Assembly (NCBI GenBank): GCA_040388985.1
Contig: JAZKAU010000001.1
Coordinates: forward strand, 1-57,358
DNA from: Patescibacteria group bacterium
Lineage (GTDB): Bacteria > Patescibacteriota > Minisyncoccia > Phycocordibacterales > Phycocordibacteraceae
Length of the DNA: 57,358 bases
Direction: 5' to 3'
The translations under genes and the position numbers were made by a program. The notes under the pieces were generated by a model. That model saw only the letters and a program-made list of their open reading frames with translations. It searched no databases and was not told the origin of the DNA. Below, in pieces: positions 17,141 to 41,412 of this stretch (position 1 is the stretch's first letter; each line of letters starts with the position of its first letter).

Positions 17141-17193
17141 TAACAATAGTATGCAAACAGAAAGCCCACCGGAGCGGGATTTCCGCCGATGGG

Positions 17194-17499: not shown

Positions 17500-17688
17500 G
17501 AGAACCCTTCCGATTTGAGAAACTAAGGATTCGAGCGAACCCAAGGACATAATACACTTTTGCTACTGCTTAGAAAGGTTCCAATATCGTCCCAGTACGG
17601 GTAGCCGTAGTTGAGATAACTACGGACATATAGGTTCCAACGTTGTCCCACACTGCCAGGCGGAATCGGAAATGGTACTGTAGACATA

Positions 17689-18366: not shown

Positions 18367-18458
18367 TAAATAGTGACTTACTCCGTTTCCGTAGAAAAGT
18401 TCCAACCTTGTCCCACACAGTCAGCGGGTCTTCAGTCGAATTAACTATACTTAAAAGT

Positions 18459-18797: not shown

Positions 18798-18859
18798 CGA
18801 AGGAGAGTTCCAACCTTGTCCCACACTGCCAGCAAGTTAAATTTGATATACTTCTCAAC

Positions 18860-19405
18860 ATGAAAGTAATCCTGTTTGGTGACAGTATGCTTGCCCGATT
18901 CGGTAAAGAGCGTCTCCAAAAACTAGAATCAATGGTGCCGGAAGGTGATTTCTACAACTGTGCTACAGGCGGTTGGGATAGTAATGACTGCGCTATGAAG
19001 GCCCCATATATTGCATCCCTTAAGCCAGACGCGGTCGTCATCTCCGTAGGCACGAATGATGCCTCGCCTTGGAAACAAGTCCCGCTAGAGATTTTTAGAA
19101 ACAACCTATTGAACATTCGCGATAGCTTTAAGGATTCGAAAGTCATTTTCTTTCCACCACCTCCTGTCAACGAAGATAAACAAGCAGGTGAGTTGATAAG
19201 GAGCAACGAATTGATGCAGCAGTATTCCTCCGCTGTAAAAGATGTGTCTTCAAGTGCGGCTGTCGCGTGTATCGACTCGTGGGCAATATTTAGCTCACTT
19301 CTTGAACAAGGTCAGGACTACCATGTTGAGGATGGAGTACATCTCAACGATAATGGGAATGACCTGCTGACTGATCAGCTAGCGGAGGCGCTGAGTTCGA
19401 AATAG
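18860..19405 (+). CDS. SGNH/GDSL-family hydrolase
   Basis: Block I FGDSM, block III GTNDAS, block V DGVHLN. The ATG at 18860 is preferred over the ORF-track start at 18707. Confidence 0.8.
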   Translation: MKVILFGDSMLARFGKERLQKLESMVPEGDFYNCATGGWDSNDCAMKAPYIASLKPDAVVISVGTNDASPWKQVPLEIFRNNLLNIRDSFKDSKVIFFPPPPVNEDKQAGELIRSNELMQQYSSAVKDVSSSAAVACIDSWAIFSSLLEQGQDYHVEDGVHLNDNGNDLLTDQLAEALSSK

Positions 19406-19487
19406 GGTCCCACGTTGTCCCATACGGTAAGCAAACTGAATGTGCGTAAAATATTATTGAGCTTTAGGAAGTTGTATAATCGTACAT

Positions 19488-19916
19488 ATGACGACCCTAA
19501 ACCCTTGGATTAATTTTAATGGCAATGCTGAAGAAGCTTTTAATTTTTACAAGTCAGTCTTTGGCGGCGATTTCAAGAAGATAATCCGCCTCAAAGATCT
19601 TGCCAGTTCTGAGTTCCCGGTTTCGGAAGAAGACGCAAATAAGATACTGCAGATCGTCTTGCCCATAGGTGACTCGAATACATTAATCGGAAATGACGTA
19701 CCCAACTTCATGGGAAAGGTGAGTGAGAATGAGAACAGGAGTAAGGTCCACGTTGCGACCAGCAGCAAAGAAGAAGCTGAGAGGATATTCAACGGTCTTT
19801 CCGTGGGAGCAGATGTAGAGATGCCGATCGGTGAGAGTGCGTGGGGAACCTACTTCGCTATGTTCAGGGACGTGTACGGTATTGAATGGGTCATAGAATT
19901 TGATCCAAGTAACTAA
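19488..19916 (+). CDS. VOC (glyoxalase/PhnB-like) family protein
   Basis: The N-terminus NPWINFNGNAEEAFNFYKSVFGG and the C-terminal WGTYFAMFRDVYGIEW are typical of PhnB-like VOC proteins. Confidence 0.7.
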   Translation: MTTLNPWINFNGNAEEAFNFYKSVFGGDFKKIIRLKDLASSEFPVSEEDANKILQIVLPIGDSNTLIGNDVPNFMGKVSENENRSKVHVATSSKEEAERIFNGLSVGADVEMPIGESAWGTYFAMFRDVYGIEWVIEFDPSN

Positions 19917-19975
19917 GGTCACGCTTATTCCAATATCCTCCCGTGCTGCCGGCCAAGGATGCTAGGATAGGCGTA

Positions 19976-20800
19976 ATGATTGAAGCAATCCCACAGCCTC
20001 AGAAGGAAGAGAACGCTTCTCTGCCGTCTCTGGGAACGGTCGAGCAACTCCTCTCCGAGGAGTTGCGTGGAGCAGAACAAGATCTGGCAATAATAGGCGA
20101 ATCTTTGCGAGCATTTGCGAGGCTCGTAGAAGCAGAGCGTCCTGATGTTCTTGTCTTTCTTGACGTCAGTGTCCGTATCTTCGGTACTCCCTACCTGAAA
20201 TACTTTTCTGAGAGAATGGGAAGAGGTGCTCCCTCGATCCGCTTTTACAATGATCATAATTTGAAGGGCGCCTTTCTGGGATATACGCCTCTAGATCCTA
20301 TAGTTCAGAATGACTTCGAATCACTGAAGGGCAAGAAGGTATTCTTTGTTGACGAGACCTTTTCCGAAGGAAAAGGCGCGCTAGCACTGCTTGAAGCTTC
20401 GTCACGGGCTGGAATCGCGGCTCGCTATATTGCTCTTACTAAAGATCCTGAGCCTCCTTCAAGTAAGATCCTAAATGAGGAGGATGAGATTCTTGTTGAA
20501 CAAGATATAGAGGACGGGAATATTATTATTTACGATCATCCTATTCATAATCTTTTCTCTCGATACGGCAGCAGACTCTACGTTAAAGAGGAAGTGGAAG
20601 GCAAGACTCGTCCCATGCAGGTTTCTCGAGAGAAGGCGACGGCCGCTAGTAGTATCCCTCATGCAGATAGCTATAGTGTGCCCCCAGAAGGCATGTCGAG
20701 TGAAGAGTACCAATTAGCTGTTTCAGCGAAATTCGATGCTAGCGTTAGGGATTTGAAAGAAAAGATCTATCAAACACTTAAGGCTGAAGAGGGCGTATAA
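19976..20800 (+). CDS. Phosphoribosyltransferase-like protein
   Basis: PRPP-loop-like KKVFFVDETFSEGKG, preceded by VLVFLDVSVRIFGTPY. The call is weak. The ATG at 19976 is preferred, because the GTG at 19943 lies inside the intergenic motif. Confidence 0.45.
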   Translation: MIEAIPQPQKEENASLPSLGTVEQLLSEELRGAEQDLAIIGESLRAFARLVEAERPDVLVFLDVSVRIFGTPYLKYFSERMGRGAPSIRFYNDHNLKGAFLGYTPLDPIVQNDFESLKGKKVFFVDETFSEGKGALALLEASSRAGIAARYIALTKDPEPPSSKILNEEDEILVEQDIEDGNIIIYDHPIHNLFSRYGSRLYVKEEVEGKTRPMQVSREKATAASSIPHADSYSVPPEGMSSEEYQLAVSAKFDASVRDLKEKIYQTLKAEEGV

Positions 20801-20901
20801 CGGCTCCAGTATCGCCTGCACCCTAATTTGTCGAGGATAAACAGATCCGGCAATTCCGGACTACGAATGTACAGGGACAAGAATAGTGCTATCGTTTAGG
20901 C

Positions 20902-21648
20902 ATGGCTGAACCTCTTCCAGCGAACGCATTCTTTGATATAAATAAGCTTCCTTCTGAAAAAGGACTGCTTTTGTTCGGTCTTTCGATGAATAAGCTTTTC
21001 TTACGCCAGAGCCCCGAACACTGTGTAGAGGACATTCGACACTTTCACACAGCAAAAGTATCCAAGCCGCTTATCGGCCTGAATTTTATCTACAGTGAAT
21101 TCCTATATCTATACAGCGACAAGCCGGCCCCGGAGTTGAAAGACTCCTTTATGAACCAGATCATTAGTCACAAGAATGGCCTGCAGAATATTCTCGGAAA
21201 GAACAACCTGGATTTCCAGATTCAGCATGCCTTTAACTATATGGCGTGGGCCCAGCTATATGTCGGGACCAAAGACTTTAATCAGCTATTTGCGTCTTTG
21301 AAAAAAATATACGCCACAGACGAACTATTTCAGAGATACATCAAGGAAGACAGTGAGGCATACGGCAGAGAGATGGGAGACAATCAAGTGAATTTCTTTT
21401 TGGAAGAGATTCTCATGTTTCACCTGCTTACCAAGAACCAGGTGAAGCTTCCGAACGAATATATCGAAGGCCAGCAGAAGTGGATACTATACTGCTATCC
21501 TGGCCGTCCGCTCAAGAGTACCGTCTATATGTATCAACTGAATCCCTTTAAGCTCGATTGGAAGGATAACCCGTATCAGAACGCTCACTTTGATCTGGAA
21601 GCCAAGCAACTCATTGAATTTGATAGGGTAGATTTAGAGACCTACTAG
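20902..21648 (+). CDS. Hypothetical protein (248 aa); weak motif-level resemblance to cyclodipeptide synthases
   Basis: LLLFGLSMNKLF (aa 22-33), NFFLEEILMF (aa 164-173) and ILYCYPGRP (aa 195-203) fall at spacings reminiscent of the CDPS Ser / Tyr-x3-Glu / Tyr motifs. See the findings. Confidence 0.6.
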   Translation: MAEPLPANAFFDINKLPSEKGLLLFGLSMNKLFLRQSPEHCVEDIRHFHTAKVSKPLIGLNFIYSEFLYLYSDKPAPELKDSFMNQIISHKNGLQNILGKNNLDFQIQHAFNYMAWAQLYVGTKDFNQLFASLKKIYATDELFQRYIKEDSEAYGREMGDNQVNFFLEEILMFHLLTKNQVKLPNEYIEGQQKWILYCYPGRPLKSTVYMYQLNPFKLDWKDNPYQNAHFDLEAKQLIEFDRVDLETY

Positions 21649-21670
21649 CGCCAATAGCTATATTGAAAGC

Positions 21671-22513
21671 ATGAAGAACTGGCTGGTAACCGGAGGAGAG
21701 GGATTCATCGGAGGAAGGATCGCTAGGGCGACGGGTGCGACGTTATACGACCTGAAATCGGCTAAGGATATTCTCGATACTCAGGAGCTGCTTCAGGCCT
21801 GTGGAGATGTCGACGGGATATTCCACTGCGCGGCCAAGATAAGCGTTCCTGAGAGCTTCCGAGAACCGGAGGAATATCACCTCCATAACGTTCAAGGTAC
21901 GGCGAGCGTTACCCGGGCCGCAAAAGCTAGGAATGCCAAGGTAGTCTTCTCTAGCAGCGCTGCGGTATATGGCGAATCTGATACGCCGGTCCGAGAAACA
22001 GATGCGCTTCACCCGATGTCGCCCTATGCGCAGAATAAGAAGGATGGTGAAGCGCTATTGAAGGAATCAGGAATTCCGTACGCTGTTCTGCGGTATTTCA
22101 ATGTGTACGGCCCTGGCCAATCTGCGGCCTATGCGGGAGTCATTACCATGTTCATTCATAGCGCGCTCAGGAATGAAGATCTTGTCATCTATGGCGACGG
22201 CACCCAGGTGCGCGACTTCGTATATGTCGACGACGTGGTCGCGGCTAATATAAGAGCGATGGAATCAGAGGGCATCTCAGGAGAGACCTTCAATATCGGA
22301 AGCGGAACGATGACTTCTATAGGGCAGCTCGCCGAAGAGATCATCAGGCTTACCGGTTCAGGATCCAGGATTACCTACAAGTCTGCGCGTGAAGGAGATA
22401 TCGTGTACTCCCAGGCTGACGTTTCAATGGCTACGAATATCCTGAATTGGAAGGCATCGGTATCGCTTACGGAAGGGTTGGAGCGAACGATCGAGTCATA
22501 TAGAGATGTGTAA
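21671..22513 (+). CDS. NAD-dependent epimerase/dehydratase (SDR family)
   Basis: VTGGEGFIGGRI Rossmann motif and a YxxxK motif (SPYAQNKKD). Confidence 0.85.
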   Translation: MKNWLVTGGEGFIGGRIARATGATLYDLKSAKDILDTQELLQACGDVDGIFHCAAKISVPESFREPEEYHLHNVQGTASVTRAAKARNAKVVFSSSAAVYGESDTPVRETDALHPMSPYAQNKKDGEALLKESGIPYAVLRYFNVYGPGQSAAYAGVITMFIHSALRNEDLVIYGDGTQVRDFVYVDDVVAANIRAMESEGISGETFNIGSGTMTSIGQLAEEIIRLTGSGSRITYKSAREGDIVYSQADVSMATNILNWKASVSLTEGLERTIESYRDV

Positions 22514-26638: not shown

Positions 26639-27139
26639 ATGGACCAAGACCGGATAAAAGCCGAATTCCTTGAAGCGTATGACCAGTACGCAGACGAGCT
26701 CTACCGTTTCTGTCTATTCAAGGTCTCAGACTCGGAACGAGCGCAGGACCTTACCCAGGACACCTTTACGCGCTTCTGGCAGACGCTGCGCAAAGACACG
26801 GTCGTCGAGAATCCTCGCGCCTTGCTCTTCATGATCGCGCGCAATCGCATCATCGACTGGTACCGCAAGAAGAAGGAGCAATCGCTCGACGTGCTCCAGG
26901 AAGCGGGACTCGATGTCACGGGAGAGGGCGCTGCTGATGTGGAGCAGCCGGCGCAAATGCGCGAAGCACTTGCCGCTATCGAATCGCTCGACGAGCCGTC
27001 CCGTGAAGTCCTCACCTTACGCTATGTAGAAGGATGGACGCCGGTCGAGATAGCGGCACTGCGTGGCGAATCAGCGAATGCCGTCTCCGTGCGCCTCAAC
27101 CGCGCCATCAAGAAGGTTCAAGACAAGATGCATATATGA
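26639..27139 (+). CDS. ECF-type RNA polymerase sigma-70 family factor
   Basis: Region 2 (DELYRFCLFKV..AQDLTQDTFTRFW) and region 4 (LTLRYVEGWTPVEIAALRGESANAVSVRLNRA). The start is set at MDQDRI. Confidence 0.85.
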   Translation: MDQDRIKAEFLEAYDQYADELYRFCLFKVSDSERAQDLTQDTFTRFWQTLRKDTVVENPRALLFMIARNRIIDWYRKKKEQSLDVLQEAGLDVTGEGAADVEQPAQMREALAAIESLDEPSREVLTLRYVEGWTPVEIAALRGESANAVSVRLNRAIKKVQDKMHI

Positions 27140-28185
27140 CCAAAACTCTGACTAAAACCGAACAAGAACTAGCCTACCTCCGCACCCTGCGTCTCCCTTC
27201 CGCCGCGCGTCTTCGCATGCGCGAAGAGTTATCCGCTTATGCTGACCTGCATGCGCGTCACGTAGGCGCGGAGCCCGCATACCGCAATTCGAAATACCTT
27301 TCATACTTCCCGGCAGGCTTCTGGCGCGTGTCAGCTGCCTTACTCATCCTCGTAGCCTCTCTCGGCGGTACGGCCTATGCCGCGAACGGTTCGCTTCCGG
27401 GGCAGCCGCTCTATCCGATTAAGATAAACGTTACGGAGCCGGTTGAGACCGCGCTTATCCCGAGCGCGTCCGGCAAAGCCGCCTGGCATGCCATCCTTGC
27501 AGAGCGGAGGCTCGACGAGGCGACGCAGCTTGCGGTAAAAGGAAGTCTTGACTCAGCAACGCAGCAATCGCTGAGTGATAATTTCAGCACGCACGTGCGC
27601 GACTCTATCGCCGCCGCTGACGAGCTACAGAAGGAAGGTGACGTAAACGGTGCACTCGCCGTCCGCTCAGACCTTGAAGCGCGTATCACCGCGCACGAGG
27701 ACATACTCGGCCTCGTTGCCGATCATCTTGCCGCCTCCGGCGCCGCGGACGCAACCTCGACTGAAGCCGTGCGCACCTTACTCACCGTCGTACACGATCG
27801 GCAGGATACCGTCGAGGGCGCGCGTCTGGCGCTCGAAGACTCGGAAGATGCAGCCAGCTCAAGGACTCCCGTATTTGCAAAGACAACTAGTGCTATGAAG
27901 GCTGACGATACGTCCGCGAAGCCGGCAATCATGCATTCCCCGCGAGAGATCACAAGAGAAGCGCGCACGCTCGAGATTGCGAGCATCCTGCGCAAGAACA
28001 GCGCGCTTATAAGCTTACTCGGCCCCGTCGGCACGAGCACGACAGCTACGTCGACCGCAACCTCCACTATTGAGACTGCTTCGAGCACCGTAGAGTCAGA
28101 TCAAGATATCGATGAGAACGCCGCACCTGATGGTGAGAATCTCAGGCAATCCTGGCCTACTTCTCAAGAAAACATAAAGAACTGA
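27136..28185 (+). CDS. Membrane-anchored anti-sigma-like protein
   Basis: ATGA overlap with the sigma gene stop. One TM segment (FWRVSAALLILVASLGGTAYAA), followed by a helical extracytoplasmic region. The role is inferred from position. Confidence 0.55.
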   Translation: MTKTLTKTEQELAYLRTLRLPSAARLRMREELSAYADLHARHVGAEPAYRNSKYLSYFPAGFWRVSAALLILVASLGGTAYAANGSLPGQPLYPIKINVTEPVETALIPSASGKAAWHAILAERRLDEATQLAVKGSLDSATQQSLSDNFSTHVRDSIAAADELQKEGDVNGALAVRSDLEARITAHEDILGLVADHLAASGAADATSTEAVRTLLTVVHDRQDTVEGARLALEDSEDAASSRTPVFAKTTSAMKADDTSAKPAIMHSPREITREARTLEIASILRKNSALISLLGPVGTSTTATSTATSTIETASSTVESDQDIDENAAPDGENLRQSWPTSQENIKN

Positions 28186-31185: not shown

Positions 31186-31524
31186 ATGAAAATCTTCTAT
31201 CACTGGCTCGTATCGGCAATCGCTATCGGTATCGCCGCTTACATCCTTCCGGGCGTCACAATTACCATAGCCGGCGCGCTCGTGCTTGCGGTCGTGCTCG
31301 GCATCATCAACATCTTCATAAAGCCGATAGTGAAGCTGCTTACCCTGCCGCTGACCATAATTACGCTCGGCCTCTTCTCGCTCGTCATAAACGCGCTGCT
31401 CATCCTGCTTGCAGGAGCTGTCGTGCCGGGCTTCGTCGTCGCGGGCTTCTGGTCGGCCTTCCTCTTCGCCATCATCCTCTCGCTCATTAACGCCTTCTTC
31501 AACGCTATAGACGGGAAGGACTAG
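31186..31524 (+). CDS. Small 4-TM membrane protein of the holin-IV/DUF360-like type
   Basis: The sequence LVSAIAIGIAAYILPGV..FIKPIVKLLTLPLTIITLGLFSLVINALLI resembles the YvlD/holin family 4 pattern. Confidence 0.5.
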   Translation: MKIFYHWLVSAIAIGIAAYILPGVTITIAGALVLAVVLGIINIFIKPIVKLLTLPLTIITLGLFSLVINALLILLAGAVVPGFVVAGFWSAFLFAIILSLINAFFNAIDGKD

Positions 31525-31607: not shown

Positions 31608-32726
31608 ATGGACGAAAGAACTCCCAGAATTCACAGCAGCGCTGCTGATAGCGGCTACGACAAGCAGGAAACTGCTGGAGCAGTTTCTGAAAGAAGCGCC
31701 AACCAGCTCAGGCATGCCCACGAACAGCTGGCACAGAAATTAGCCCGAGAGTTCCTGGACGCAGGCAACCCTGCCCAAGCCCTCGCGCTCTTGAGGAATT
31801 CAAGCAGGACTACGACAACGAACCTGACGATGCTCATAGGAATCTGGGCTGCAGATCCGGAAAACTCCGGAGACGAGGCACAGCAGCTTTTCGCATCATA
31901 TGCCGGACGAGCCGACAGCTTTAACCTGTTGATGGATACGCTCCGGTATATACGGAGCCCAAAGAGAGGTCCTCTGCCCGCCTCTTTTGCAGGGATTACG
32001 GAATCTCGTATGCGAGAACTGAATCCCGAATGGGACGGTACGCCCGATACGCGCCATCAGGAACATGATGCCGAAAGGATCAGGCTTTCGAACTCTCCGC
32101 CAGAACAGATCAGCGATCCGACGCTCTGCTTGGAACTTGCATTTGTCGCAAGCGCTACGACGGCAGCGGCAGCATTCCTCAATCGCTACGTTGAACTTGG
32201 AGGAAGTCCTGATGACGAGAAGTATTTGAGGACAGTACTGAATCTGATCCAGAGAGGACGGTGGCCTGTGAAAGATGCTGCTGAATTGATCGAGAAGCTC
32301 GCGCAACGAATTCCTCCGGAGTCCTTTAGGAGGTGGGCGAGGAAACATAGCATCGATTCACCGAAGGATGGTTATTTCCAAGTACCTTCAGCTTTTTCTC
32401 GGCTAGTGCTAGCGAATTATATACAGGTAGATCCGAGTCATCTTGATGAAGCCGATTGGCTCTACATCAGCACGCGCTCCCTCGAGATTGGAGAGAGAGC
32501 GCTCATGGAGGCTTGCTTCGAACATCTTAAGGGGATAGTCCGTACGGAAGAGTCTCAAAGAGTCTTTGAAGACTTGTTCCGTAAGGTTTCCAAGACTCCT
32601 GAAGATGGCATGTCTGAAGCCGATAGGCAGCTAGGAAATAAAATATATAATCAATTATCGACGCGAACTGCAGTGAACAGGGATGCGGCCATAGTCGCGT
32701 GGGCGCACGAAGTGATACGTAATTAG
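31608..32726 (+). CDS. Hypothetical soluble protein (372 aa)
   Basis: Long ORF with no TM segment and no recognisable motif. It lies immediately upstream of the ATPase operon. Confidence 0.55.
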   Translation: MDERTPRIHSSAADSGYDKQETAGAVSERSANQLRHAHEQLAQKLAREFLDAGNPAQALALLRNSSRTTTTNLTMLIGIWAADPENSGDEAQQLFASYAGRADSFNLLMDTLRYIRSPKRGPLPASFAGITESRMRELNPEWDGTPDTRHQEHDAERIRLSNSPPEQISDPTLCLELAFVASATTAAAAFLNRYVELGGSPDDEKYLRTVLNLIQRGRWPVKDAAELIEKLAQRIPPESFRRWARKHSIDSPKDGYFQVPSAFSRLVLANYIQVDPSHLDEADWLYISTRSLEIGERALMEACFEHLKGIVRTEESQRVFEDLFRKVSKTPEDGMSEADRQLGNKIYNQLSTRTAVNRDAAIVAWAHEVIRN

Positions 32727-32780
32727 TATCACTCAGCATCTCGCGATTGCGGTTTCAGACAATTTGGTTAATTCATAGTC

Positions 32781-32829
32781 GTATATACCCACGGCTATGT
32801 TCTGAGTGAAGCCAGTACTGGGTATATAC
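32781..32829. promoter_or_regulatory. 11-bp inverted repeat 9 nt upstream of the ATPase start codon
   Basis: GTATATACCCA (32781-32791) pairs with TGGGTATATAC (32819-32829), with a 27-nt spacer. Confidence 0.35.
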
Positions 32830-32837
32830 TGTATCCA

Positions 32838-35588
32838 ATGGCATTCGAAGGACCCGTACAACCGATAGCGACACCCGAGGACGAGCTTGCGTACCTGCGC
32901 GCTCAGATCGCAGCGAAGGAGGCGGAACTTGCAACTCTCAAGGAATCACGTCCGCGTGAAGAGATAGTGCACGAACGTCTCCTGCATCACCGCGAAGCTG
33001 CCCCTGAAGCGGTGCTTGCGCCGAGCTATCAGCTCACGAGCGAAGCGGCAAGCGCGCTCGCGCTCAACCTTGATCCTGAGAGCGATGACGATACGATGAG
33101 CGAGCTCAAGGGCATCATGGAGACCAAAGGCATCAAGAATGCCTTTGCAGTACTTGAGAAGCTGAACTCACCGCATCTCGAGGACGACTTCCATCGCTTT
33201 CTCGTCCAATATCTCTTAAAAGGTCAGCCCATAAACGGACTTGGTGAAAAGCAGCCGGCATGGAAGTCGCTTCACATGACCCTCTACGAGATAGCGCTTC
33301 CAGAAGTAAGCGCGGGAGAAGGGCAGGCCAAACCGCTCAAGGAGCTCATCTCCGCGATGGAGCAGTTCTACTCAGGCATGCTCGCCGTCGAGAAAGCATA
33401 TGCGAATGAGCCGGCATATTTCTCGCTCGAGCTTGCCGTGCCGGTCGATAGCGCGCATCTCATGTTCTATGCTGCAGTCCCCAATTCACGGCGCGATCTT
33501 TTCGAGAAGCAGATACTTGCCATTTTCCCGAATGCGAACATCGCGGCACAGCCGAACGACTACAACGTCTTCGTACAGGACGGCGTATCACTCGCGTCCA
33601 TAGCTTCATTCGCGAAGCCAGCCGCGCTGCCGCTCAAGGACTACGCTGATTTCGATTACGATCCGCTCAACTCGCTCCTGAATGCCTTCGCAAAGATTGC
33701 CCCAGAGAACGAGGGTGCATCGCTCCAGATTCTCATCCATCCCGAGAACGATCGACACGCCGATCACTATCGTCGCATCCTCGACCTTCTGCGCAAAGGT
33801 GATAATCGCGATTCAGCATTGCGCCACCCAGAATCGTTCTTCGGTGACGCGATGAAGGATCTTGGCTCGACATTCTTCGGGAACGCGAAGCATGAGGCGG
33901 AAGAACGCGAGCGCAGGCGCAGCATCAATGCCAATCAGTCGGACATCGAGCAGGTAGAGAAGAAGATGGCTGCTCCGCTCGTCTCGGTCAATATGCGCCT
34001 CGCCGTGTCATCCCAGGACGCCGGGCGTGCCGAACAGATACTCGGAGAGCTTGAAGCAGCGTTCCATCAATTCGAGAATCCGCTAGGGAACCGCCTCCAC
34101 TGGACCCGCATAGCGCGAGGCGCCCTTCGCCGCTTATTCCATGACTTTACGTTCAGGCTTTACGAGAGGAGTTCGGAGCTCGCCATGTCGCTTCGCGAGC
34201 TCACGACCCTCTATCACTTCCCGCCGAGCGGCATCGAATCCTCGCCGCACTTGAAGCAGTCGCGCGCCAAAGGTGCGGCAGCTCCTGCGGAGTTGCCGCG
34301 AGAGGGTCTTGTTCTTGGAACTAATACCTTCGGCGGGAAAGTCACCGAAGTACGTCTCGGCGATCAGGATCGCCTGCGCCATCTCTATGTTATCGGTCAG
34401 ACCGGTGCCGGAAAGTCCGGTCTGTTGCGCACGCTCCTTGATCAGGACATCAAGGCCGGTAAGGGCGTCTGCTTCATCGATCCGCACGGCAACGACATCC
34501 TCGACGTGCTCGCCGGCGTGCCGCCCGAGCGGTATGAGGATGTCATCTATTTCGATCCGGCTAATATAGACCGGCCGTTCGGCATCAATATGCTTGAGTA
34601 TGATCCGTCGCATCCCGAACAGAAGTCCTTCATCGTGAATGAGCTTCTTATGATCTTCCGCCAGCTGTATGGCGACGTGCCTGAATCCATGGGCCCGGCC
34701 TTCGAGCAGTATTTCCGCAACGCGACCCAGCTCGTCATGGAAGACCCGAGTTCCGGCTCGACCCTCATGGACATCGGTCGAGTACTCTCTAACAAGGCAT
34801 TCCGCGACCTCAAGCTTTCCCGTTCCATGAATCCTATCGTAAACCAATTCTGGACCGAGATAGCGACGAAGGCCGGAGGCGACGCGTCCCTCGAGAATAT
34901 CGTGCCGTACATCACGAACAAGTTCGACGAGTTCACTGCCAACGATTTCATGCGACCGATAATCGGCCAGCAGAATTCGTCGTTCAATTTCCGCGACGTG
35001 ATCGACTCCAAGAAGATATTGCTCGTGAACCTTTCCAAGGGTCGCTTAGGCGAGCGCAACGCCAACCTGCTCGGCCTCATCATCGTGGGCAAGCTGTTCA
35101 TGGCGGCGCTTTCGCGCGCCGACAATCCGCGCGCTGACTTCCCGCCGTTCTATCTCTATATCGACGAGTTCCAGAACATCACGACATCCTCGATTCCGGG
35201 CATTCTCTCTGAGGCCCGCAAATACAAGCTTTCGCTTACCATAGCGCACCAGTACCTGGCGCAGATCGATGAGAAGATACGGGACGCCGTCTTTGGAAAC
35301 GTGGGCTCAATGTCTATCTTCCGCGTGGGCCAGGAGGACGGGGAATTCTTTGGGAAGCTCTTCGAACCGACTTTCAGTGCAAGCGACTTCACCAATATTG
35401 AGAACAGGAACGCGTATGTGCGTATCCTTGCGAATGGCGTGCCACAGAAGCCGTTCAACATCCGCACGCTCGACTTGGCGCCTGGAAATCTCGACCAAGT
35501 GGACGACTTGCGCGAGCTTTCATACCTGACATACGGTCGGGACCGTGGTACCGTTGAAGCATCGATTAGAGAGCGCTATCTTTCCTAA
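32838..35588 (+). CDS. VirD4/TraD-family (type IV coupling protein-like) P-loop ATPase without an N-terminal TM anchor
   Basis: Walker A YVIGQTGAGKSG, then CFIDPHGND, Walker B FYLYIDEFQN, and LTIAHQYLAQI. The ~480-aa N-terminal region has no hydrophobic segment. Confidence 0.75.
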   Translation: MAFEGPVQPIATPEDELAYLRAQIAAKEAELATLKESRPREEIVHERLLHHREAAPEAVLAPSYQLTSEAASALALNLDPESDDDTMSELKGIMETKGIKNAFAVLEKLNSPHLEDDFHRFLVQYLLKGQPINGLGEKQPAWKSLHMTLYEIALPEVSAGEGQAKPLKELISAMEQFYSGMLAVEKAYANEPAYFSLELAVPVDSAHLMFYAAVPNSRRDLFEKQILAIFPNANIAAQPNDYNVFVQDGVSLASIASFAKPAALPLKDYADFDYDPLNSLLNAFAKIAPENEGASLQILIHPENDRHADHYRRILDLLRKGDNRDSALRHPESFFGDAMKDLGSTFFGNAKHEAEERERRRSINANQSDIEQVEKKMAAPLVSVNMRLAVSSQDAGRAEQILGELEAAFHQFENPLGNRLHWTRIARGALRRLFHDFTFRLYERSSELAMSLRELTTLYHFPPSGIESSPHLKQSRAKGAAAPAELPREGLVLGTNTFGGKVTEVRLGDQDRLRHLYVIGQTGAGKSGLLRTLLDQDIKAGKGVCFIDPHGNDILDVLAGVPPERYEDVIYFDPANIDRPFGINMLEYDPSHPEQKSFIVNELLMIFRQLYGDVPESMGPAFEQYFRNATQLVMEDPSSGSTLMDIGRVLSNKAFRDLKLSRSMNPIVNQFWTEIATKAGGDASLENIVPYITNKFDEFTANDFMRPIIGQQNSSFNFRDVIDSKKILLVNLSKGRLGERNANLLGLIIVGKLFMAALSRADNPRADFPPFYLYIDEFQNITTSSIPGILSEARKYKLSLTIAHQYLAQIDEKIRDAVFGNVGSMSIFRVGQEDGEFFGKLFEPTFSASDFTNIENRNAYVRILANGVPQKPFNIRTLDLAPGNLDQVDDLRELSYLTYGRDRGTVEASIRERYLS

Positions 35589-35592
35589 ATCT

Positions 35593-38500
35593 ATGTCTAA
35601 GAATGGAGAACCAGGATTTCCGCCGCCAGGAATAAGCGCATCCGGGAACGAGGGAGAGCCCAAAGAACTTCGGCGCGGAGCGCTCTATGAACGCGACGGT
35701 GACGTATATCTTGTCGTCCAAAGGCTGCCGGACGGTGAAGTGAGGATTCTGAAGGAGAAAGACGTTATAGGACAACATGAGTATGATGGCCCTAGTACGC
35801 TTAAGGAATTTCGGGAAGATGACATTCACAAGTTTGCTATGGCCTATAGGCCGGGCGCAAGCTATTCCGGAGAAACGCTCTCTATGGATTACTTTACGAA
35901 AGGCGCGAGCTATATTGGCTCACTTCCCGATCCCGCGATCAATTCCAGAGCTGAATTCCCAGATTATCCTTCAGGCACTACCGGAATTCTGAGTGAAGGC
36001 GGCGAACGGATCATGCTTCTTGGTTCTCCATACTTTGATACTAGTTACGATAAATGGATGGCCAGTGTCAAGAATTCTGATGAATCCAGACAACATAGGT
36101 TTATAGAAGATTTCAAACCTGATTCGGAAAAGCCACTTATTGTCGAGAAGCCACTTGTTTTACCGAAAATTCCCAAAGTTGCTGAAGAGATACCTCTCAT
36201 TGTCGAGAAGCCGATCATAGCTGAGGAGGTGCCTCTCATTCTTTCGACCACTCCTGAAGCGGTTGACACATCCGTAGAGAAAGAGCCGAAGCCGATCGGA
36301 TTCATCGATGAAGACAGGATTTACCGACTCGCGGATCCAAGCGAGCTTCCAAAAAAATTGGGATTCATGACCTACAATACGGAAAAGGGGAAAGGAGATA
36401 TATTAATGATCCGTGCACAGACTGATCCTGCAGATTCAGGAACGCCTGATTGGGTTGCCCTCGATGCGATCGTCTTCGTTGACGAGACGGAGCGCGCGAA
36501 ATACGAGAAATACAGAGGCTTGGGATACGTAAAAGTTAACGACAACAATGACATAATCTCTGATGATGAGGCAAATCAGCGTATGGGGCCTATCGTGCTG
36601 TCTCCCGAGGCTCTAGCCGCAGCCGAGGCATATAAGAAGGAAGTCGAGGAAGCCGATGCTCTGCGCACAAGGCTGCTTGATGTGAAAGGAAATGATGAAT
36701 CACGTGAAATTGATACAGCTGGTTACTACAAGCGTACCACCACCCAGATGATTATCTCGGCTAAGGGGAGGATGGAACATATGAAAACCCAAAGCGCGAC
36801 TTTGCCACCCTCGCTGAAAGCCGAATTTAACGGCGAGTTTGTGCAAATGCAAACAGGATTATCCCGAATCATAGCCTTGGACGCGGAACTGCAGAGACTG
36901 ATTGATTCGAAGGGAGCCAATACCGAAATCAATCACGATGCTTATCTAAATGAAATCGAGCTTTTTGTACTCAGCGAAGATAGATTGATAGGCATTCTCA
37001 AGAAAGGAACTGTTGATTCAGACTTGAATACGGATAGTACACCGCCGCTTCCTGAGTCCATTCCCCAGCCGCCCGTTGACCCTCTATGGCATCACGGGCC
37101 GCCGGGGCTGCACGATGATCCGACGTTTGACTCCTTGAAAGAGACCAAGGAGGGATTGAACCGGAGCGTGGAAGAACTGCAAGCGCTCCGCATAGATCAG
37201 CGGGAGGCAAACGTAGAAGAGTTCGCTGCTAAATACAACATCACTTTACAATATGTAGAGTTGCGTGCAATAGAACGTCAGGTCGCTGACGTGATACGAA
37301 AGCGAGGTACTAATGTCGTTCGCGTTCCTTTTAATACATTCAAATTACCGAAGGAGCTCCAAGAGGATTACACGGCAGCGCAGGCGGCATGGATCGCCGC
37401 GCTTGATGGAGCGGTGCCGAAATTCGATACGCCCACTAAAGAGCTGACGAAGGAGCAATATCAGGCATTGAGTCCCGAAGAGCGAGCACAGCGTCAGGAT
37501 CGTATTAAGGCAGAAATGATCGCTAAGCGCGATACGGTCATCCGTCCAGGTAAGCTGAAGACAGAGGCCTTGCGCGCGGGCCTCGATGAGCGTAGCCAGA
37601 AGCTCGCGGTACGGTTGATGCAATGGGCAAGCTTCGGAGCGACTGAACTTCTCCGGGAGGACGCGGCAGTATTCAAGGCAGGCTTCAAAGGGTACTCGAA
37701 ACTAGCTGAGAAGGTCGGAGGTCTTGGCGAAGGCGCTGCGCGAGGAGCGATGGCGGGTTATGAGTTGTTTGGGGGACAGGAGATAAGCGAAGAGCGAAAA
37801 GCTGCGGTCTCCTTGCGCGCGCGCCGTATCGTCGGCTCGGCTGCCATATGGAGCCTTTTGGTGCCGGTCGGCGTCGCCGCGGCAGGTACTGCGGGTATAG
37901 CCGCAGCCGCCGGTCTCGGTACCCTTTCTCTAACGGGTATGAGCGCGGCTGCGTTCGCTCGCATACTGCGCGGTGGTATCGGCATAGCGACCGGCGGCGT
38001 GGCAGGCGTAGGAGCAGGAAAGGCATACGAACGCACTATCGGGACGTATGCGCAGAAGAAGAACGAGACCTCTAGGCAGAATCTCACAGAGCTTTATAAG
38101 AAAGGTTCGCTTACGGACTTATTAGAAACCGCAAAGCGCACGGAAGCTGAAAAAATATATCAGAGAGGAAATACGGAAGCTCGAGAAGCGCGCACGCAGA
38201 GAGCCGCGAGCGGCCGGTCTCTCTTCGAGATGGGAGTGGCAGGAATAGTCGGAGGACTGGCGGCTTACGAATCGAGCGGCGTCATCAACAAGGATATGTT
38301 CGGCAGTCATTCCGCAGTGGATAAAGCCGTGGGAGACATACGGCGAACAGAAACCGGCAGCGCTACCGCATCGAGCGAAGCGGCTCCTGCTCCTAAGCCT
38401 ACGACAGATTCCCTCGTACGACCGCGAACAGAGGCCGTTTCTTCCTCTGCGAATCCGCCTGAACAGGCCGCTACGAGTGCTGCTCCGACCCCTGCTGCGC

Positions 38501-39627
38501 CGGAAGGGGTGACCAGCAATGTCTCGATAGAAAACGCTTCAGGAGAAGGCACGGATCAGCTCTTCAGAGAACTTAAGGCGGTAGCCGGAAAGCCAGGATT
38601 CGGAGGCGGTACGCATTCCGCTGCACTGAATCACCTCTTAGGAACGAATTCGAATGCGCTTTCCCGAGAAATGGGCGAGGCTTACGGCACGCGCGGAATG
38701 GTGACTCACGTTGGGGACAAGTTCATCATCGACAGCAAGCAGAATGTCTACTTCCAGGCGGCAGGCGGAGAGCCGCAGCTTTTCTTAGAGAATAACGATG
38801 CTAGCCCGAAGGGCTTCACCGTACATGAGATAGACGCGAAGCCGCTGCCTCCTATCGAACAGCAACAAGCGGCGCGAACTACACCAGCCAGAGCTCCGCA
38901 GCCTATAGAACGGCCCGCAGCACCCGCCGAAACGCAGCAGTCCCCATCTACAACTGCTCCGCAGGAAATCTCGAATGCTCCCGCGCCATCCCCAGAGGCG
39001 GTGGTACAAGATAGTGTGACCCCAGCGGCTTCTGTCGATGCCGTGAATGCAGTACCTGATCAACACGCAGATACCTCCGTGGTTGACGCTACGACTCCTG
39101 CGGATGCTATTGACGCGAGCAATGCCAGTACCGCGCCCGCCATTTCTCCTGACCAGGCACCTGCTGCGACGGAGCCGCTAGCAGCCGAACGTCCGGCAGT
39201 ACCTGCATCTTCAGAAGCGGTCACGACTCCTGCGGCAGATCACTCCGCTCCAGAGGCTCCAGCAAGCACGAGCAGTGCGCTTGAGCCGTATACCAATCCG
39301 CATGGAGAATTCATAGACCCGAGCAAGCCGGGCATGCATCCATGGAGGGTGCCGGGTACCAAGCTGACGTACCCGGTCATCTACGGAGGAGATGACGCTA
39401 CGAGGGCAGCGTGGGCCGATCAGTATCTCAAAGATAACCCTGGCACAGAGCAAGTTCTGACTACGTATACTGATCCATTAACGCATCAGACGTACCTGCA
39501 GCTGCATAAGCTAGGGCCTACCGGGCAGCCGCAACCGCCGATAGGAATGGTCTATTTCCCGGACACGGAGGAGGCTCTTCCGATTCCTGACCCGAAGGAC
39601 TTTCTAAAGATGAGATATAATATATGA
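35593..39627 (+). CDS. Giant hypothetical membrane protein (1344 aa)
   Basis: The ATG is 5 nt after the ATPase stop. It contains a PLIVEKP-type short repeat, coiled-coil-like regions, a central Gly/Ala-rich cluster of TM segments (IVGSAAIWSLLVPVGVAAAGTAGIAAAAGLG.., GGIGIATGGVAGVGAG, MGVAGIVGGLAAY), a long Pro/Ala/Thr-rich linker, and a C-terminal globular part. Confidence 0.75.
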   Translation: MSKNGEPGFPPPGISASGNEGEPKELRRGALYERDGDVYLVVQRLPDGEVRILKEKDVIGQHEYDGPSTLKEFREDDIHKFAMAYRPGASYSGETLSMDYFTKGASYIGSLPDPAINSRAEFPDYPSGTTGILSEGGERIMLLGSPYFDTSYDKWMASVKNSDESRQHRFIEDFKPDSEKPLIVEKPLVLPKIPKVAEEIPLIVEKPIIAEEVPLILSTTPEAVDTSVEKEPKPIGFIDEDRIYRLADPSELPKKLGFMTYNTEKGKGDILMIRAQTDPADSGTPDWVALDAIVFVDETERAKYEKYRGLGYVKVNDNNDIISDDEANQRMGPIVLSPEALAAAEAYKKEVEEADALRTRLLDVKGNDESREIDTAGYYKRTTTQMIISAKGRMEHMKTQSATLPPSLKAEFNGEFVQMQTGLSRIIALDAELQRLIDSKGANTEINHDAYLNEIELFVLSEDRLIGILKKGTVDSDLNTDSTPPLPESIPQPPVDPLWHHGPPGLHDDPTFDSLKETKEGLNRSVEELQALRIDQREANVEEFAAKYNITLQYVELRAIERQVADVIRKRGTNVVRVPFNTFKLPKELQEDYTAAQAAWIAALDGAVPKFDTPTKELTKEQYQALSPEERAQRQDRIKAEMIAKRDTVIRPGKLKTEALRAGLDERSQKLAVRLMQWASFGATELLREDAAVFKAGFKGYSKLAEKVGGLGEGAARGAMAGYELFGGQEISEERKAAVSLRARRIVGSAAIWSLLVPVGVAAAGTAGIAAAAGLGTLSLTGMSAAAFARILRGGIGIATGGVAGVGAGKAYERTIGTYAQKKNETSRQNLTELYKKGSLTDLLETAKRTEAEKIYQRGNTEAREARTQRAASGRSLFEMGVAGIVGGLAAYESSGVINKDMFGSHSAVDKAVGDIRRTETGSATASSEAAPAPKPTTDSLVRPRTEAVSSSANPPEQAATSAAPTPAAPEGVTSNVSIENASGEGTDQLFRELKAVAGKPGFGGGTHSAALNHLLGTNSNALSREMGEAYGTRGMVTHVGDKFIIDSKQNVYFQAAGGEPQLFLENNDASPKGFTVHEIDAKPLPPIEQQQAARTTPARAPQPIERPAAPAETQQSPSTTAPQEISNAPAPSPEAVVQDSVTPAASVDAVNAVPDQHADTSVVDATTPADAIDASNASTAPAISPDQAPAATEPLAAERPAVPASSEAVTTPAADHSAPEAPASTSSALEPYTNPHGEFIDPSKPGMHPWRVPGTKLTYPVIYGGDDATRAAWADQYLKDNPGTEQVLTTYTDPLTHQTYLQLHKLGPTGQPQPPIGMVYFPDTEEALPIPDPKDFLKMRYNI

Positions 39628-39947
39628 CCATGACGCAACCGACGAAACAGGAATCTGAGACTCTTCTGAAGGCCCTTGATCTGACCGAGCTCCCGGTAGA
39701 GGAACAGGAGGAGTTATTGCTTGAGTTCAACTCGCTCGTCTTCGAAGGCACGATGCTGCGCCTCATAGACCGGATGGACGAGCCTACGCGGGAGGCCTTT
39801 GAAGCGCTCCTGGAAACCGACCCCTCGGACGACCAGGTCGAGGCATTCTTGGCTCTAAAAGTGCCTGATGTCGATTCTATAGTAGAAGAAACCCTTGCCG
39901 ACATCCGCAATGATATACTTTCCGTAACCGGCGAAGGCAGGGATTAA
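39624..39947 (+). CDS. Small acidic hypothetical protein (107 aa)
   Basis: ATGA overlap with the giant gene's stop. The product is highly acidic and looks helical. Confidence 0.6.
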   Translation: MTMTQPTKQESETLLKALDLTELPVEEQEELLLEFNSLVFEGTMLRLIDRMDEPTREAFEALLETDPSDDQVEAFLALKVPDVDSIVEETLADIRNDILSVTGEGRD

Positions 39948-39949: not shown

Positions 39950-40510
39950 TTGAATATCGCATTTCCTATGAATACTATGCAGATTACGTCTACCGGCATT
40001 GCCGTAGCTCTGGCGGTCGTGGTCGCGCTCGGCCTCTTGTTCTTCGGCCCGCGCGTACTCGCGCCGTTCTCGCCCGCGGCAAGCTCCCAGAGCCAGACGG
40101 CAGCAGCTACTGATATACAAACCTCAACCACTACCACTACCACTATGACCACGTCCGCACCTATACCATCTCCGCTTCCGACTGAATTAACGAAGATCGA
40201 CGAAGTCGTAGGTACCGGAGCTGTCGCTGCCGCAGGTACGCAGGTGACCGTGAATTACGTCGGCATGCTTCCTGACGGCACCGTCTTCGATGCCTCAGCA
40301 AAGCATCCTGAGACACAGGCAGGCTTCTCGTTCCCGCTCGGCGGAGGAAAAGTTATCCAGGGATGGGACCAAGGAGTCGTCGGTATGAAGGTGGGCGGTA
40401 AGCGCCGACTGATCGTACCTCCCGGCATGGGATACGGCGCGAACGACTACGGACCGATTCCAGGGAATTCCACGCTTATCTTCGACATCGAACTCCTGAA
40501 GGTTCAATAG
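39950..40510 (+). CDS. Membrane-anchored FKBP-type peptidyl-prolyl isomerase
   Basis: VTVNYVGMLPDGTVFDAS, GKVIQGWDQGVVGMKVGGKRRLIVPPGMGYG and LIFDIELL. TTG start at 39950; alternative ATGs at 39968 and 39977. Confidence 0.85.
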   Translation: MNIAFPMNTMQITSTGIAVALAVVVALGLLFFGPRVLAPFSPAASSQSQTAAATDIQTSTTTTTTMTTSAPIPSPLPTELTKIDEVVGTGAVAAAGTQVTVNYVGMLPDGTVFDASAKHPETQAGFSFPLGGGKVIQGWDQGVVGMKVGGKRRLIVPPGMGYGANDYGPIPGNSTLIFDIELLKVQ

Positions 40511-40550: not shown

Positions 40551-40592
40551 CCGCCGGCGAGAACAACTAGTGTTCCGCCGGCGGTATGTTTT
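40551..40592. terminator. Bidirectional hairpin terminator between the FKBP gene and the lipoprotein gene
   Basis: CCGCCGGCG(A)GAACA-ACTAG-TGTTCCGCCGGCGG, followed by TATGTTTTTT. Confidence 0.6.
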
Positions 40593-40614
40593 TTCCCTGT
40601 CGGGAAGAGGGAGG

Positions 40615-41232
40615 TCAGTCCCCCTTGTGGTGACGCCGGCGCCGCTGCGGGCGCGGTTCGTCACCGCGGGGTTCGGAATTGCCCCAGGCCTTGCCGGCGG
40701 TCACGACTTCGACGAACGTACCGATGTACTTGTCGTCCTTGAAGTCGACCGACGGGTCGCCCGAGAGTCCTTCCTTCTTGGACTCGTCCCAGAAGTCGCG
40801 CGTGCACATGCCGATGGCACTTGCCGCGCTCGAGGCACCGACGGTGGCGTTATTGATGCCGCCGCCGACCGCGCCCGGGATCGCGCCGTACCCCGCGTAC
40901 TGGAGGGTCTTGGCAGCCGCGCCGAAGGCCGTGTGGGCCGCGGGGCCCACGCTGCCGCCGCTGATTGCGCCGGGGAGCACGCCATTCACGAACGACTGTC
41001 CGGGACCGGCCACCTGGTGGTGGACCTGCCCCTGGCAGCTGGTCGAGAGGAACGTGATCTCCTTCACTGCTTCCAGCGGCGGAACGCCGCCGTTGACCCG
41101 GGGATGCTGGACGATCGCAACCTGCGCGAGCGGCGCGCTGCTGAAGCCCGCGAACTGCGTGCTAGCGCAGCCCGAGAGCATCGGCCCCATTGCGAATGCC
41201 ATGAACATGGCGAGGATCCTGAAAAGACGCAT
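40615..41232 (-). CDS. Glycine-zipper-rich lipoprotein in a visibly G+C-rich insert
   Basis: Signal peptide plus the lipobox MLSGC. Gly/Ala-rich segments follow (GAISGGSVGPAA.., GYGAIPGAVGGGINNATVGASSAA). Third codon positions are strongly G/C, unlike the neighbouring genes. Confidence 0.7.
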   Translation of the reverse strand: MRLFRILAMFMAFAMGPMLSGCASTQFAGFSSAPLAQVAIVQHPRVNGGVPPLEAVKEITFLSTSCQGQVHHQVAGPGQSFVNGVLPGAISGGSVGPAAHTAFGAAAKTLQYAGYGAIPGAVGGGINNATVGASSAASAIGMCTRDFWDESKKEGLSGDPSVDFKDDKYIGTFVEVVTAGKAWGNSEPRGDEPRPQRRRRHHKGD

Positions 41233-41412
41233 GACGATCTCCTACCACTGAACCCCGTGGTGCGGGCGGGATAATCCCGAGTATTGAGAGCAGGTGACAA
41301 GCCGTTAGAACCATGCCACACCCTACCTTTATAGCATATTAACAGGCACTGTCAAGCTTTACAGAGCACAGGTTAGCTTGCGTAGAATATGGCCTGGATA
41401 TAGGCTAAATCA

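Follow-up and report, generated by a model that had tools for sequence, protein, structure and literature searches.

The gene set and its chromosomal setting

The window considered here, a 57,358-nucleotide stretch of the genome of a Patescibacteria group bacterium (contig JAZKAU010000001.1), carries four consecutive open reading frames (ORFs) centred on a soluble ATPase that resembles the coupling proteins of type IV secretion systems (T4SSs). All four lie on the forward strand, and an independent gene caller run on the public contig returned the same four products. An orphan ORF of 372 residues (31608–32726) comes first and is followed by the gene for the 916-residue ATPase (32838–35588), in which an N-terminal domain (residues 1 to ∼480) precedes the motor (residues ∼490–916). 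The third gene (35593–39627) encodes, in its ATG form, a protein of 1344 residues without recognisable domains, referred to below as the giant; the longest ORF here is 1360 residues and begins at a GTG at 35545. The fourth (39624–39947) encodes a 107-residue acidic protein (pI 4.05) with a Pfam match to DUF5663. The genes are closely packed: the ATPase stop codon (TAA) ends at 35588 and is separated by four nucleotides (ATCT) from the giant's ATG at 35593, and the giant's stop codon overlaps the start of the acidic gene as ATGA (39624–39627). Two nucleotides beyond the acidic gene lies a gene for an FKBP-type peptidyl-prolyl isomerase (39950–40510, forward strand), which forms the conserved downstream flank. 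The original prediction, which had been made from the sequence letters, had described the four ORFs, the ATPase motifs, the spacer and the overlap, and each was found where it had placed them.

The giant ORF is not an assembly artefact, since the locus lies on a single, clean 25,981-nucleotide contig, assembled from a watershed metagenome at a depth of 28, and a second sample contains identical pieces. The window as a whole is ordinary Patescibacterial chromosomal DNA, with topA, dprA, relA/spoT, parB, dus, dnaX, pif1, tgt, uvrABC and ddl all present, and the closest genomes among the matches listed are labelled Parcubacteria, Paceibacterota or Kaiserbacteria. No sign of a mobile element was found at the operon, which has no adjacent tRNA gene, falls within no compositional island and is even in GC content throughout. 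A scan of the region for promoters and terminators gave results at chance level.

Family scans across the whole window found no other T4SS ATPase and no relaxase, so that the original prediction's remark that such genes were missing from the neighbourhood holds for these two classes over all 57 kb. The sole other T4SS-related genes in the window are a pair of VirB2-type pilin genes some 30 kb away. Genes for VirB3, VirB6 or VirB8 were found neither in the window nor in 80 related loci (described below), and, the distant pilins aside, no relaxase or mating-pair formation (MPF) gene accompanied the ATPase, either here or in any of those loci.

The ATPase and its relatives

Relatives of the ATPase were sought in species-representative genomes, where at least 599 matching stretches were found, at least 547 of them encoding a relative; the best 80 loci were analysed. 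Orthologues in these loci are 51–88% identical to the window ATPase over all 916 residues. The Walker A motif GQTGAGKS (residues 520–527; 34395–34418, forward strand) and the Walker B region LYIDEFQN (residues 773–780; 35154–35177, forward strand) are strongly conserved, G523, G525 and K526 of the former and D776, E777, F778, Q779 and N780 of the latter being invariant in 21 orthologues; the motifs DPHGND (residues 548–553) and AHQYLAQ (residues 803–809) accompany them. Taken singly, the window ATPase gives only weak Pfam matches, to DUF87 (residues 513–580, the Walker A region) and to TraG-D_C. Over the 21 orthologues the pattern is clearer, with TraG-D_C and TrwB_AAD_bind each matched by all 21 and T4SS-DNA_transf by nine. 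The VirB4-type family AAA_10 was matched weakly by three of the 21 and not by the window ATPase, and CagE_TrbE_VirB fell outside the 25 most-matched families over the orthologues and likewise gave no match to the window ATPase. When the family profile was compared with the PDB, the best matches were TrwB (7e-4) and DotL. The best NCBIfam matches are TraD/VirD4-type models, with scores far below the cut-offs of the coupling-protein models, while PADLOC returned mad8 at 1.6e-11 and weak HerA matches. No nuclease, Sir2 or NurA partner gene is present beside the ATPase gene. These signatures, together with the predicted fold, identify the ATPase as a putative coupling-protein-type motor (VirD4/TraD/TrwB-like), in agreement with the family proposed for it originally and not with a HerA or FtsK enzyme of unrelated function.

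The N-terminal 480 residues of the window ATPase contain no hydrophobic segment, as had been noted from the sequence, and the same is true of the orthologues in the 80 loci. In one of these loci (L035) an apparent fusion of a PF04020 (holin-type) protein to the ATPase, which might have served as a Rosetta-stone argument for an anchor, was rejected, as it proved to span a run of N. The N-terminal region is assigned to PF26449 (DUF8128) in precomputed annotation; our own Pfam scan gave no match there, and a literature search found no paper mentioning DUF8128. An AlphaFold2 model of this domain, built from a 53-sequence alignment, reached a pLDDT of 87.4. All 14 of its significant Foldseek matches are to TrwK, the VirB4 protein of the R388 T4SS (E 5e-6 to 9e-4, probability 1.0), the next match after this set having E = 0.016. 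The full-length model has a mean pLDDT of 73.8, with the final ∼130 residues poorly modelled. It again finds TrwK/VirB4 first, colinear over 780–955 columns (E = 1e-12), and then DotL, HerA, Cagβ and TrwB, the coupling proteins with a TMt of ∼0.4–0.5. In coupling proteins an all-alpha domain sits between Walker A and Walker B, and the model of the window ATPase predicts eight helices in the equivalent position (residues 594–723), with a pLDDT of ∼60–88 over this stretch. The evidence from these models that the N-terminal domain is VirB4-like is good but not conclusive. The ATPase thus appears, on sequence and predicted structure, to join a VirB4 architecture to the motor signature of a coupling protein; we found no description of a VirB4-like fold for DUF8128 in the searchable literature.

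Relatives with the same layout occur well beyond the Patescibacteria. The PHROGs family 5156 (phrog_5156), which carries no functional assignment, matches residues 191–912 of the ATPase (3.6e-66), and tblastn with the ATPase found 321 plasmid records and aligned gp156 of Bacillus phage G over residues 172–864. The alignments to plasmid and phage homologues enter the N-terminal domain (from residues 142–260) with E values of 1e-23 to 3e-55. Many of these homologues have telling neighbours. On Bacillus plasmids a homologue of ∼900 residues is the first gene of a conjugation operon and is followed by a replication-relaxation (Replic_Relax) relaxase, conjugal transfer proteins, TcpE and a VirB4-like ATPase. 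In Embleya the order is PrgI, a VirB4-like protein, the ATPase homologue, a relaxase and NlpC/P60; in Streptomyces a relaxase follows the homologue; and in Herpetosiphon the homologue lies two genes 3′ of a VirB4-like gene. In phage G (L088, 3249–7391) gp155, which is VirB-like, is encoded directly upstream of gp156, and shorter relatives of gp156 are found in Bacillus phages of the SP-10/CP-51 type. No hydrophobic segment was found in the Bacillus plasmid homologues. Because the homologues adjoin relaxase or VirB4-like genes, and because the Bacillus ones also lack transmembrane (TM) segments, the family takes the place of the coupling protein in monoderm transfer systems, and its TM-less state is normal.

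Published work places such a protein in a familiar setting. Coupling proteins without a TM domain are a recognised class, and the coupling protein TraJ of pIP501 is thought to be anchored by a separate protein, TraI (PMC7431656, PMC13037476). In Patescibacteria, 5,713 VirD4-like coupling-protein homologues have been counted in 2,918 genomes, of which 148 lie near virB4, and relaxases are mostly absent (Quinonero-Coronel et al., PMC12102498). The same study describes Patescibacteria as host-dependent, reports that epibiotic growth cannot proceed without a chromosomal, relaxase-less T4SS in the sole case tested genetically, and suggests that the t4cp gene may have been exapted. The window ATPase fits this published description of orphan coupling-protein homologues. 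The original prediction had proposed that the giant may supply the membrane anchor of the TM-less ATPase. With a known class of TM-less coupling proteins, TM-less homologues in Bacillus and an N-terminal domain that looks VirB4-like, the missing TM segment is no anomaly that calls for the giant.

The giant and the acidic protein

ORFs were called in all 80 loci and the window genes were mapped onto them; 70 of the loci make up a closer clade. The gene order in this clade is a four-TM PF04020 protein, a variable slot, the ATPase, an optional big ORF, an optional DUF5663 gene, FKBP, tgt and uvrB. A co-directional big ORF of at least 440 residues follows the ATPase in 50 of the 65 closer-clade loci whose downstream sequence is long enough, and it begins a median of 11 nt (4–20 nt) after the ATPase stop. 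Its median length is 878 residues, and in the other loci it ranges from 446 to 1267 residues, compared with 1344 in the window. The DUF5663 gene is present in 35 of the 52 closer-clade loci with at least 4.5 kb of downstream sequence; it always stands behind a big ORF, at a median gap of 9 nt, and among these 52 loci was never found without one. Where this cassette is missing, the FKBP gene is directly behind the ATPase, and in 10 closer-clade loci it starts within 450 nt of the ATPase stop, leaving no room for either gene. In an outgroup clade, whose ATPases are 51–54% identical to that of the window, neither the big ORF (0/9) nor DUF5663 (0/6) was found, and the ATPase is surrounded by unrelated housekeeping genes (2-hydroxyacid dehydrogenase, phosphoribosyltransferase, NDK, Ham1). 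Small proteins encoded behind two outgroup ATPases (L076, L077) were considered as candidates and proved not to be DUF5663.

On a neighbour-joining tree built from the ATPases, the cassette goes back to the base of the closer clade and was lost independently at least three times, one sublineage having lost it almost entirely and two loci (L070 and L023) individually, with the ATPase full-length throughout. The giant and the DUF5663 protein are dispensable for the ATPase. Since the ATPase is intact without the cassette in 10 related and 9 outgroup loci, the giant cannot be an anchor that the ATPase requires, nor do the three genes amount to a self-contained machine. The original prediction had made its proposal depend on the three genes being kept as neighbours in related genomes. 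They are kept within one clade, at the frequencies given above, and are absent from the cassette-less loci of that clade and from the outgroup.

The genes upstream of the ATPase behave differently from one another. The PF04020 (‘Phage_holin_4_2’) gene, which in the window encodes a 112-residue protein with four TM segments (31186–31524, forward strand), is conserved upstream of the ATPase across the closer clade, often at a distance of 60–120 nt, and is syntenic there together with the gene for a DUF5667 protein (window 27034–28185). In a chromosomal setting such as this, the name holin is probably misleading. As a conserved anchor the PF04020 protein was rejected, the adjacency being absent in the outgroup and the TM protein upstream of the ATPase in L067 being unrelated; that it is an alternative membrane partner of the ATPase is speculative. 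The 372-residue ORF had been listed as preceding the set. It is indeed present; it has no Pfam match and no homologue in the 80 loci, none of the gene families that occupy its slot elsewhere matched it, and it probably lies outside the unit, as an orphan in a variable slot. In other loci (L010:8979–9890, L016:8970–9899 and equivalents) this slot holds unrelated proteins of ∼280–310 residues that are SAICAR-synthase-like, as judged by eye only. Both flanks of the ATPase are hot spots of gene turnover.

In the window giant no signal peptide was found. A PP motif near its N-terminus (FPPP, residues 9–12; 35617–35628) belongs to a conserved motif discussed below. A Gly/Ala-rich hydrophobic cluster (residues ∼743–812; 37819–38028) reaches a peak hydropathy of 1.97, has basic residues on both flanks and is probably a helical hairpin of two to three segments; a second, weak hydrophobic segment follows at residues 880–898 (38230–38286). 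Linkers rich in Pro, Ala, Ser and Thr (PAST), at residues ∼914–989 and ∼1082–1246, alternate with a mid domain (residues 975–1085; 38515–38847), the best conserved module of the family, and a conserved C-terminal domain (residues 1225–1344; 39265–39624), all on the forward strand. The absence of a signal peptide, the central Gly/Ala-rich segments, the long linker and the distinct C-terminal domain had all been recognised at the outset, and the one refinement is that the segments are weakly hydrophobic: the median 19-residue hydropathy peak of the giants is 1.76, against 2.63 for the PF04020 proteins of the same genomes.

The giants are related to each other more by plan than by sequence. Other giants share only 15–24% global identity with that of the window, whose relatives were found only for residues ∼750–1344, the first 740 residues being unique. 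A phmmer search with residues 741–1344 against 1.84 billion representative proteins gave 86 hits, nearly all of them proteins of 640–1280 residues matched in their C-terminal parts, with a few short fragments. No Pfam family was matched by any of 40 giants, and PHROGs and PADLOC found nothing in the window giant. The architecture is nevertheless conserved in 38 of these 40, comprising no signal peptide, a soluble N-terminal part of 190–760 residues, a central Gly/Ala-rich hydrophobic cluster, PAST linkers and the mid and C-terminal domains, and many have a second hydrophobic segment ∼100 residues past the central cluster. A PP dipeptide at residues 4–14 (18 in one case) occurs in 29 of 49 big ORFs, compared with 106 of 906 control ORFs (Fisher p = 3.6e-14, a value which overstates the independence of related sequences). 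Its typical form is [FWY]PP[KR], and it is also present in big ORFs too divergent to be clustered by BLAST. The original prediction had allowed that the giant might prove to be poorly conserved filler; its sequence is indeed very poorly conserved, while its architecture and the PP motif are retained.

Profile searches of the mid and C-terminal domains against the PDB found no credible relative, and a match to Msh3 at 7e-4, seen in the PDB searches with the giant domains and DUF5663, was judged spurious. The giants were also compared with VirB6: none of the 40 carries a TrbL/VirB6 signature, and they have two to three weakly hydrophobic segments in a central position rather than at least five TM segments at the N-terminus. 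The basic residues flanking the cluster, together with the second hydrophobic segment, suggest a topology with the N-terminus inside and the C-terminus outside. Such weak TM segments would fit a protein that has to avoid insertion into the membrane of the cell producing it; among the T4SS effectors that intracellular Gram-negative pathogens produce, about one in three is reported to have TM domains (PMC12981334).

The acidic protein contains 28 Asp and Glu residues and 8 Lys and Arg residues. It matches PF18908 (DUF5663) with 26.0 bits, above the gathering cut-off of 23.7, and the same family is assigned in precomputed annotation. A homologue search with it gave three hits, comparison of the DUF5663 profile with the PDB found no relative, and no paper mentioning DUF5663 was found. 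In the locus annotation of plasmid pYYL1.1 of Rhodococcus ruber, the gene immediately behind that of a 738-residue ATPase homologue encodes a 107-residue DUF5663 protein, which matches the Pfam family at 1.8e-15 and the Patescibacterial profile, by hhalign, with 89.9% probability. No further pair of this kind was found by tblastn of both DUF5663 proteins against plasmids, by a metagenome scan or by a viral scan. The Rhodococcus pair is the best single argument for a functional tie between DUF5663 and the ATPase that goes beyond neighbourhood. Past its DUF5663 gene, the same plasmid (L083, 7533–16814) encodes a 263-residue PAST-rich protein with a signal-like N-terminus, two small TM proteins of 86 and 113 residues and a polytopic protein of 426 residues, all without Pfam hits; these unannotated proteins could be a cryptic MPF cluster.

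Interpretation and comparison with known systems

The reading we lean towards, with moderate confidence, is that the window ATPase is an orphan coupling-type motor belonging to the monoderm-type T4SS repertoire of Patescibacteria, and that the giant and DUF5663 form a clade-specific accessory pair, co-transcribed with it and plausibly acting as client and as adaptor or chaperone. The ATPase would form a ring, docked through its N-terminal domain on the membrane components of a chromosomal monoderm-type T4SS encoded elsewhere, and would feed substrates to that system or have been exapted from doing so. The VirB4-like domain would be the likely docking surface for small membrane components; the titles of the PDB entries for TrwK describe this R388 VirB4 as part of an inner-membrane complex that includes VirB3, a small membrane protein. 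The giant and DUF5663 would be a dispensable cassette, the giant being a client that uses the ATPase, as an adhesin or other surface protein or as a translocated membrane protein, rather than its anchor, and DUF5663 an acidic, helical adaptor or chaperone for the giant.

Several observations weigh against this interpretation. The window holds no virB4, virB6 or relaxase gene, so that the link to a T4SS in this genome is hypothetical. In Ca. Southlakia, epibiotic growth did not require the t4cp homologue (PMC12102498). The TM-scores of the N-terminal domain with TrwK are low (0.30–0.34, TMq), and a profile–sequence comparison with a VirB4 aligns the Walker A region only. The closest relatives of the motor on Proteobacterial plasmids are motor-only proteins of 395 residues (33% identity, E = 1e-56), and the one inspected, on a Sulfitobacter plasmid (L094, 7109–8296), sits among transposases with no T4SS genes nearby; since this closest plasmid relative is motor-only and lacks T4SS genes, the sequences suggest a wider clade of orphan coupling-type motors. 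The pairing of the ATPase with DUF5663 across phyla is a single case, and within Patescibacteria DUF5663 tracks the giant and not the ATPase. Because the whole region, from PF04020 through the ATPase and FKBP to tgt and uvrB, is syntenic with housekeeping genes, adjacency is by itself weak evidence. The client and adaptor roles are proposed by analogy.

The alternatives explain parts of these data. The original prediction was that the giant supplies the membrane anchor and an extracellular arm to the TM-less ATPase and forms with the acidic protein a minimal, self-contained module for translocation or attachment. The short spacing in 50 of 65 loci, the conserved architecture of the giants and the split coupling protein TraJ/TraI of pIP501 are all in keeping with this, as is the lack of a known PrgB-like adhesin among Patescibacterial T4SSs (PMC12102498). 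We nevertheless consider it improbable. The ATPase is intact and highly conserved in the 10 close and 9 outgroup loci that lack the giant, with the cassette lost at least three times; the N-terminal 740 residues, which would be cytoplasmic and contact the ATPase, are unique to this genome; the hydrophobic segments are weak by comparison with those of the PF04020 protein; homologous ATPases elsewhere work inside full T4SS clusters; and the giant family has only its 86 representatives among the 1.84 billion proteins searched. An equally improbable alternative is that the genes are neighbours by coincidence, the giant and DUF5663 forming a hypervariable surface-protein cassette of their own that occupies a permissive slot between the ATPase and FKBP and has no functional connection with the ATPase. 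This would account well for the simple synteny of the flanking genes in the clade, for the variable and unrelated genes in both slots beside the ATPase, for repeated loss of the cassette, for a DUF5663 gene that never occurs without the big ORF and for promoter and terminator scans at chance level. It accounts poorly for the consistently tiny spacing of co-directional genes over 50 loci and for an ATPase homologue directly followed by DUF5663 on a plasmid of another phylum.

It is less probable still that the ATPase is unrelated to T4SSs here, and serves housekeeping or immunity as a DNA translocase of the HerA/FtsK type or as an ATPase of the defence type. The DUF87/HerA Pfam match is confined to the Walker A region, and the coupling-protein families match all 21 orthologues. 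HerA does appear among the fold matches and PADLOC reports mad8 and HerA, but the N-terminal domain resembles VirB4 and not a HAS barrel, and the nuclease, Sir2 or NurA partner of such systems is missing. The ATPase is core-like, highly conserved and confined to a single locus among housekeeping genes, and the motor-only relatives without T4SS context and the non-essential Southlakia homologue also speak for this view; set against them are homologues of the full architecture in conjugation operons, beside relaxases.

Orphan coupling-protein homologues in Patescibacteria, TM-less coupling proteins and the plasmid homologues were already known. We found no description in the searchable literature of the clade-restricted cassette of ATPase, giant and DUF5663, with its hypervariability and PP motif, or of the Rhodococcus pairing. 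Patescibacterial T4SSs have no known substrates or adhesins, and no role has been assigned to their many orphan coupling-protein homologues (PMC12102498). The locus gives one such orphan a defined architecture, with a predicted VirB4-like N-terminal domain, a coupling-protein-like motor and no TM segment, and connects it with a family that conjugative plasmids of monoderms and a jumbo phage also use. DUF8128, DUF5663 and a hypervariable envelope protein confined to one clade emerge as candidate partners that can be tested, and the idea that the giant is an anchor fails a simple comparative test. A bolder extension of our preferred reading, which we regard as doubtful, is that the ATPase, DUF5663 and the giant form a dedicated delivery unit. 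DUF5663 would then be a new family of adaptors or chaperones, the [FWY]PP[KR] motif and/or the C-terminal domain of the giant would act as the signal that it recognises, and the giant would be exported towards the host as a contact-dependent adhesin or as a membrane-inserting effector whose TM segments are weak by design. If true, this would provide the first candidate substrate or adhesin, with its adaptor, for Patescibacterial T4SSs.

Other parts of the window deserve brief mention. The pilin-like proteins noted at its start are indeed VirB2-type T4SS pilins (PF18895), encoded by two forward-strand genes with a 183-residue ORF without known domain between them (458–3089). The suggestion that the trio might act with them finds no support in the comparison, the pilin genes being 30 kb away and never near the ATPase in other loci. 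At 365 and 323 residues these pilins are unusually long, the pilin domain taking up residues ∼65–132, and a tRNA-Trp gene (224–295) lies just upstream. Positions 17000–22000 have a low GC content (0.46–0.47, compared with ∼0.55 elsewhere) and encode a GDSL lipase/acylhydrolase, an NAD-dependent epimerase and several ORFs without Pfam hits; this stretch may be an acquired glycan or envelope island. The highest GC content (0.61) is found at 40570–41274, where long ORFs overlap on both strands and the public call is a 205-residue ORF on the minus strand (40615–41232) without a Pfam hit. Between 53474 and 56198, two paralogous D-Ala-D-Ala ligase genes (326 and 397 residues) flank an M23 peptidase gene.

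The known systems share different parts of this arrangement. The ATPase resembles the coupling proteins VirD4, TrwB, TraD and DotL in its P-loop motor with Walker A and B, in its TraG-D_C and TrwB_AAD_bind matches and in the PDB matches of its profile to TrwB and DotL; a helical insertion like theirs is predicted by the model. It differs from them in having the 480-residue DUF8128 in place of an N-terminal TM domain, in the lack of relaxase and MPF genes nearby and in coupling-protein scores that fall below the cut-offs. With VirB4 (TrwK of R388) it shares an N-terminal domain of ∼480 residues ahead of the motor and the lack of TM segments, and TrwK is the best fold match of both the N-terminal and the full-length models; on the other hand, TM-scores are low, the window motor lacks the VirB4 Pfam families, and in the plasmid and phage clusters that were inspected a VirB4-like ATPase is encoded separately, beside the homologue. 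It is set apart from HerA by its VirB4-matching N-terminal domain in place of a HAS barrel, by a DUF87 match limited to residues 513–580 and by the absence of a gene for a partner nuclease or effector such as NurA, Sir2 or DUF4297. The DUF87 or ‘T4SS DNA-binding’ ATPases of the Bacillus, Streptomyces, Embleya and Herpetosiphon plasmids and gp156 of phage G have the same two-domain, TM-less architecture; these lie in conjugation-type clusters with a relaxase and a VirB4-like ATPase, whereas the window gene is a chromosomal orphan.

Parallels for the neighbouring genes are more partial. The ATPase is like TraJ of pIP501 in being a soluble coupling-type ATPase that would be recruited to the membrane by another protein. 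However, no TraI homologue was identified, and neither the PF04020 protein nor the giant is related to TraI or stays with the ATPase beyond one clade. On pLS20, gene 48, for a coupling protein with two TM segments, is followed by gene 49, for an extended VirB6 of ∼906 residues with five N-terminal TM segments (PMC8557374). The window likewise has a coupling-type gene directly followed by that of a large, size-variable membrane protein, but its ATPase is TM-less, the weakly hydrophobic cluster of the giant is central, and the 40 giants have no VirB6/TrbL match. Coupling proteins can also have small acidic partners, as DotL has in IcmS and IcmW and Cagβ in CagZ, and a PDB entry titled Cagβ–CagZ (8dol) is among the Foldseek matches of the full-length ATPase model. 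The DUF5663 protein, which is acidic, ∼100 residues long, probably helical and encoded with a coupling-type ATPase, is comparable to these partners; no similarity to them in sequence or structure was shown, and, unlike a partner dedicated to the motor, it follows the giant rather than the ATPase from locus to locus.

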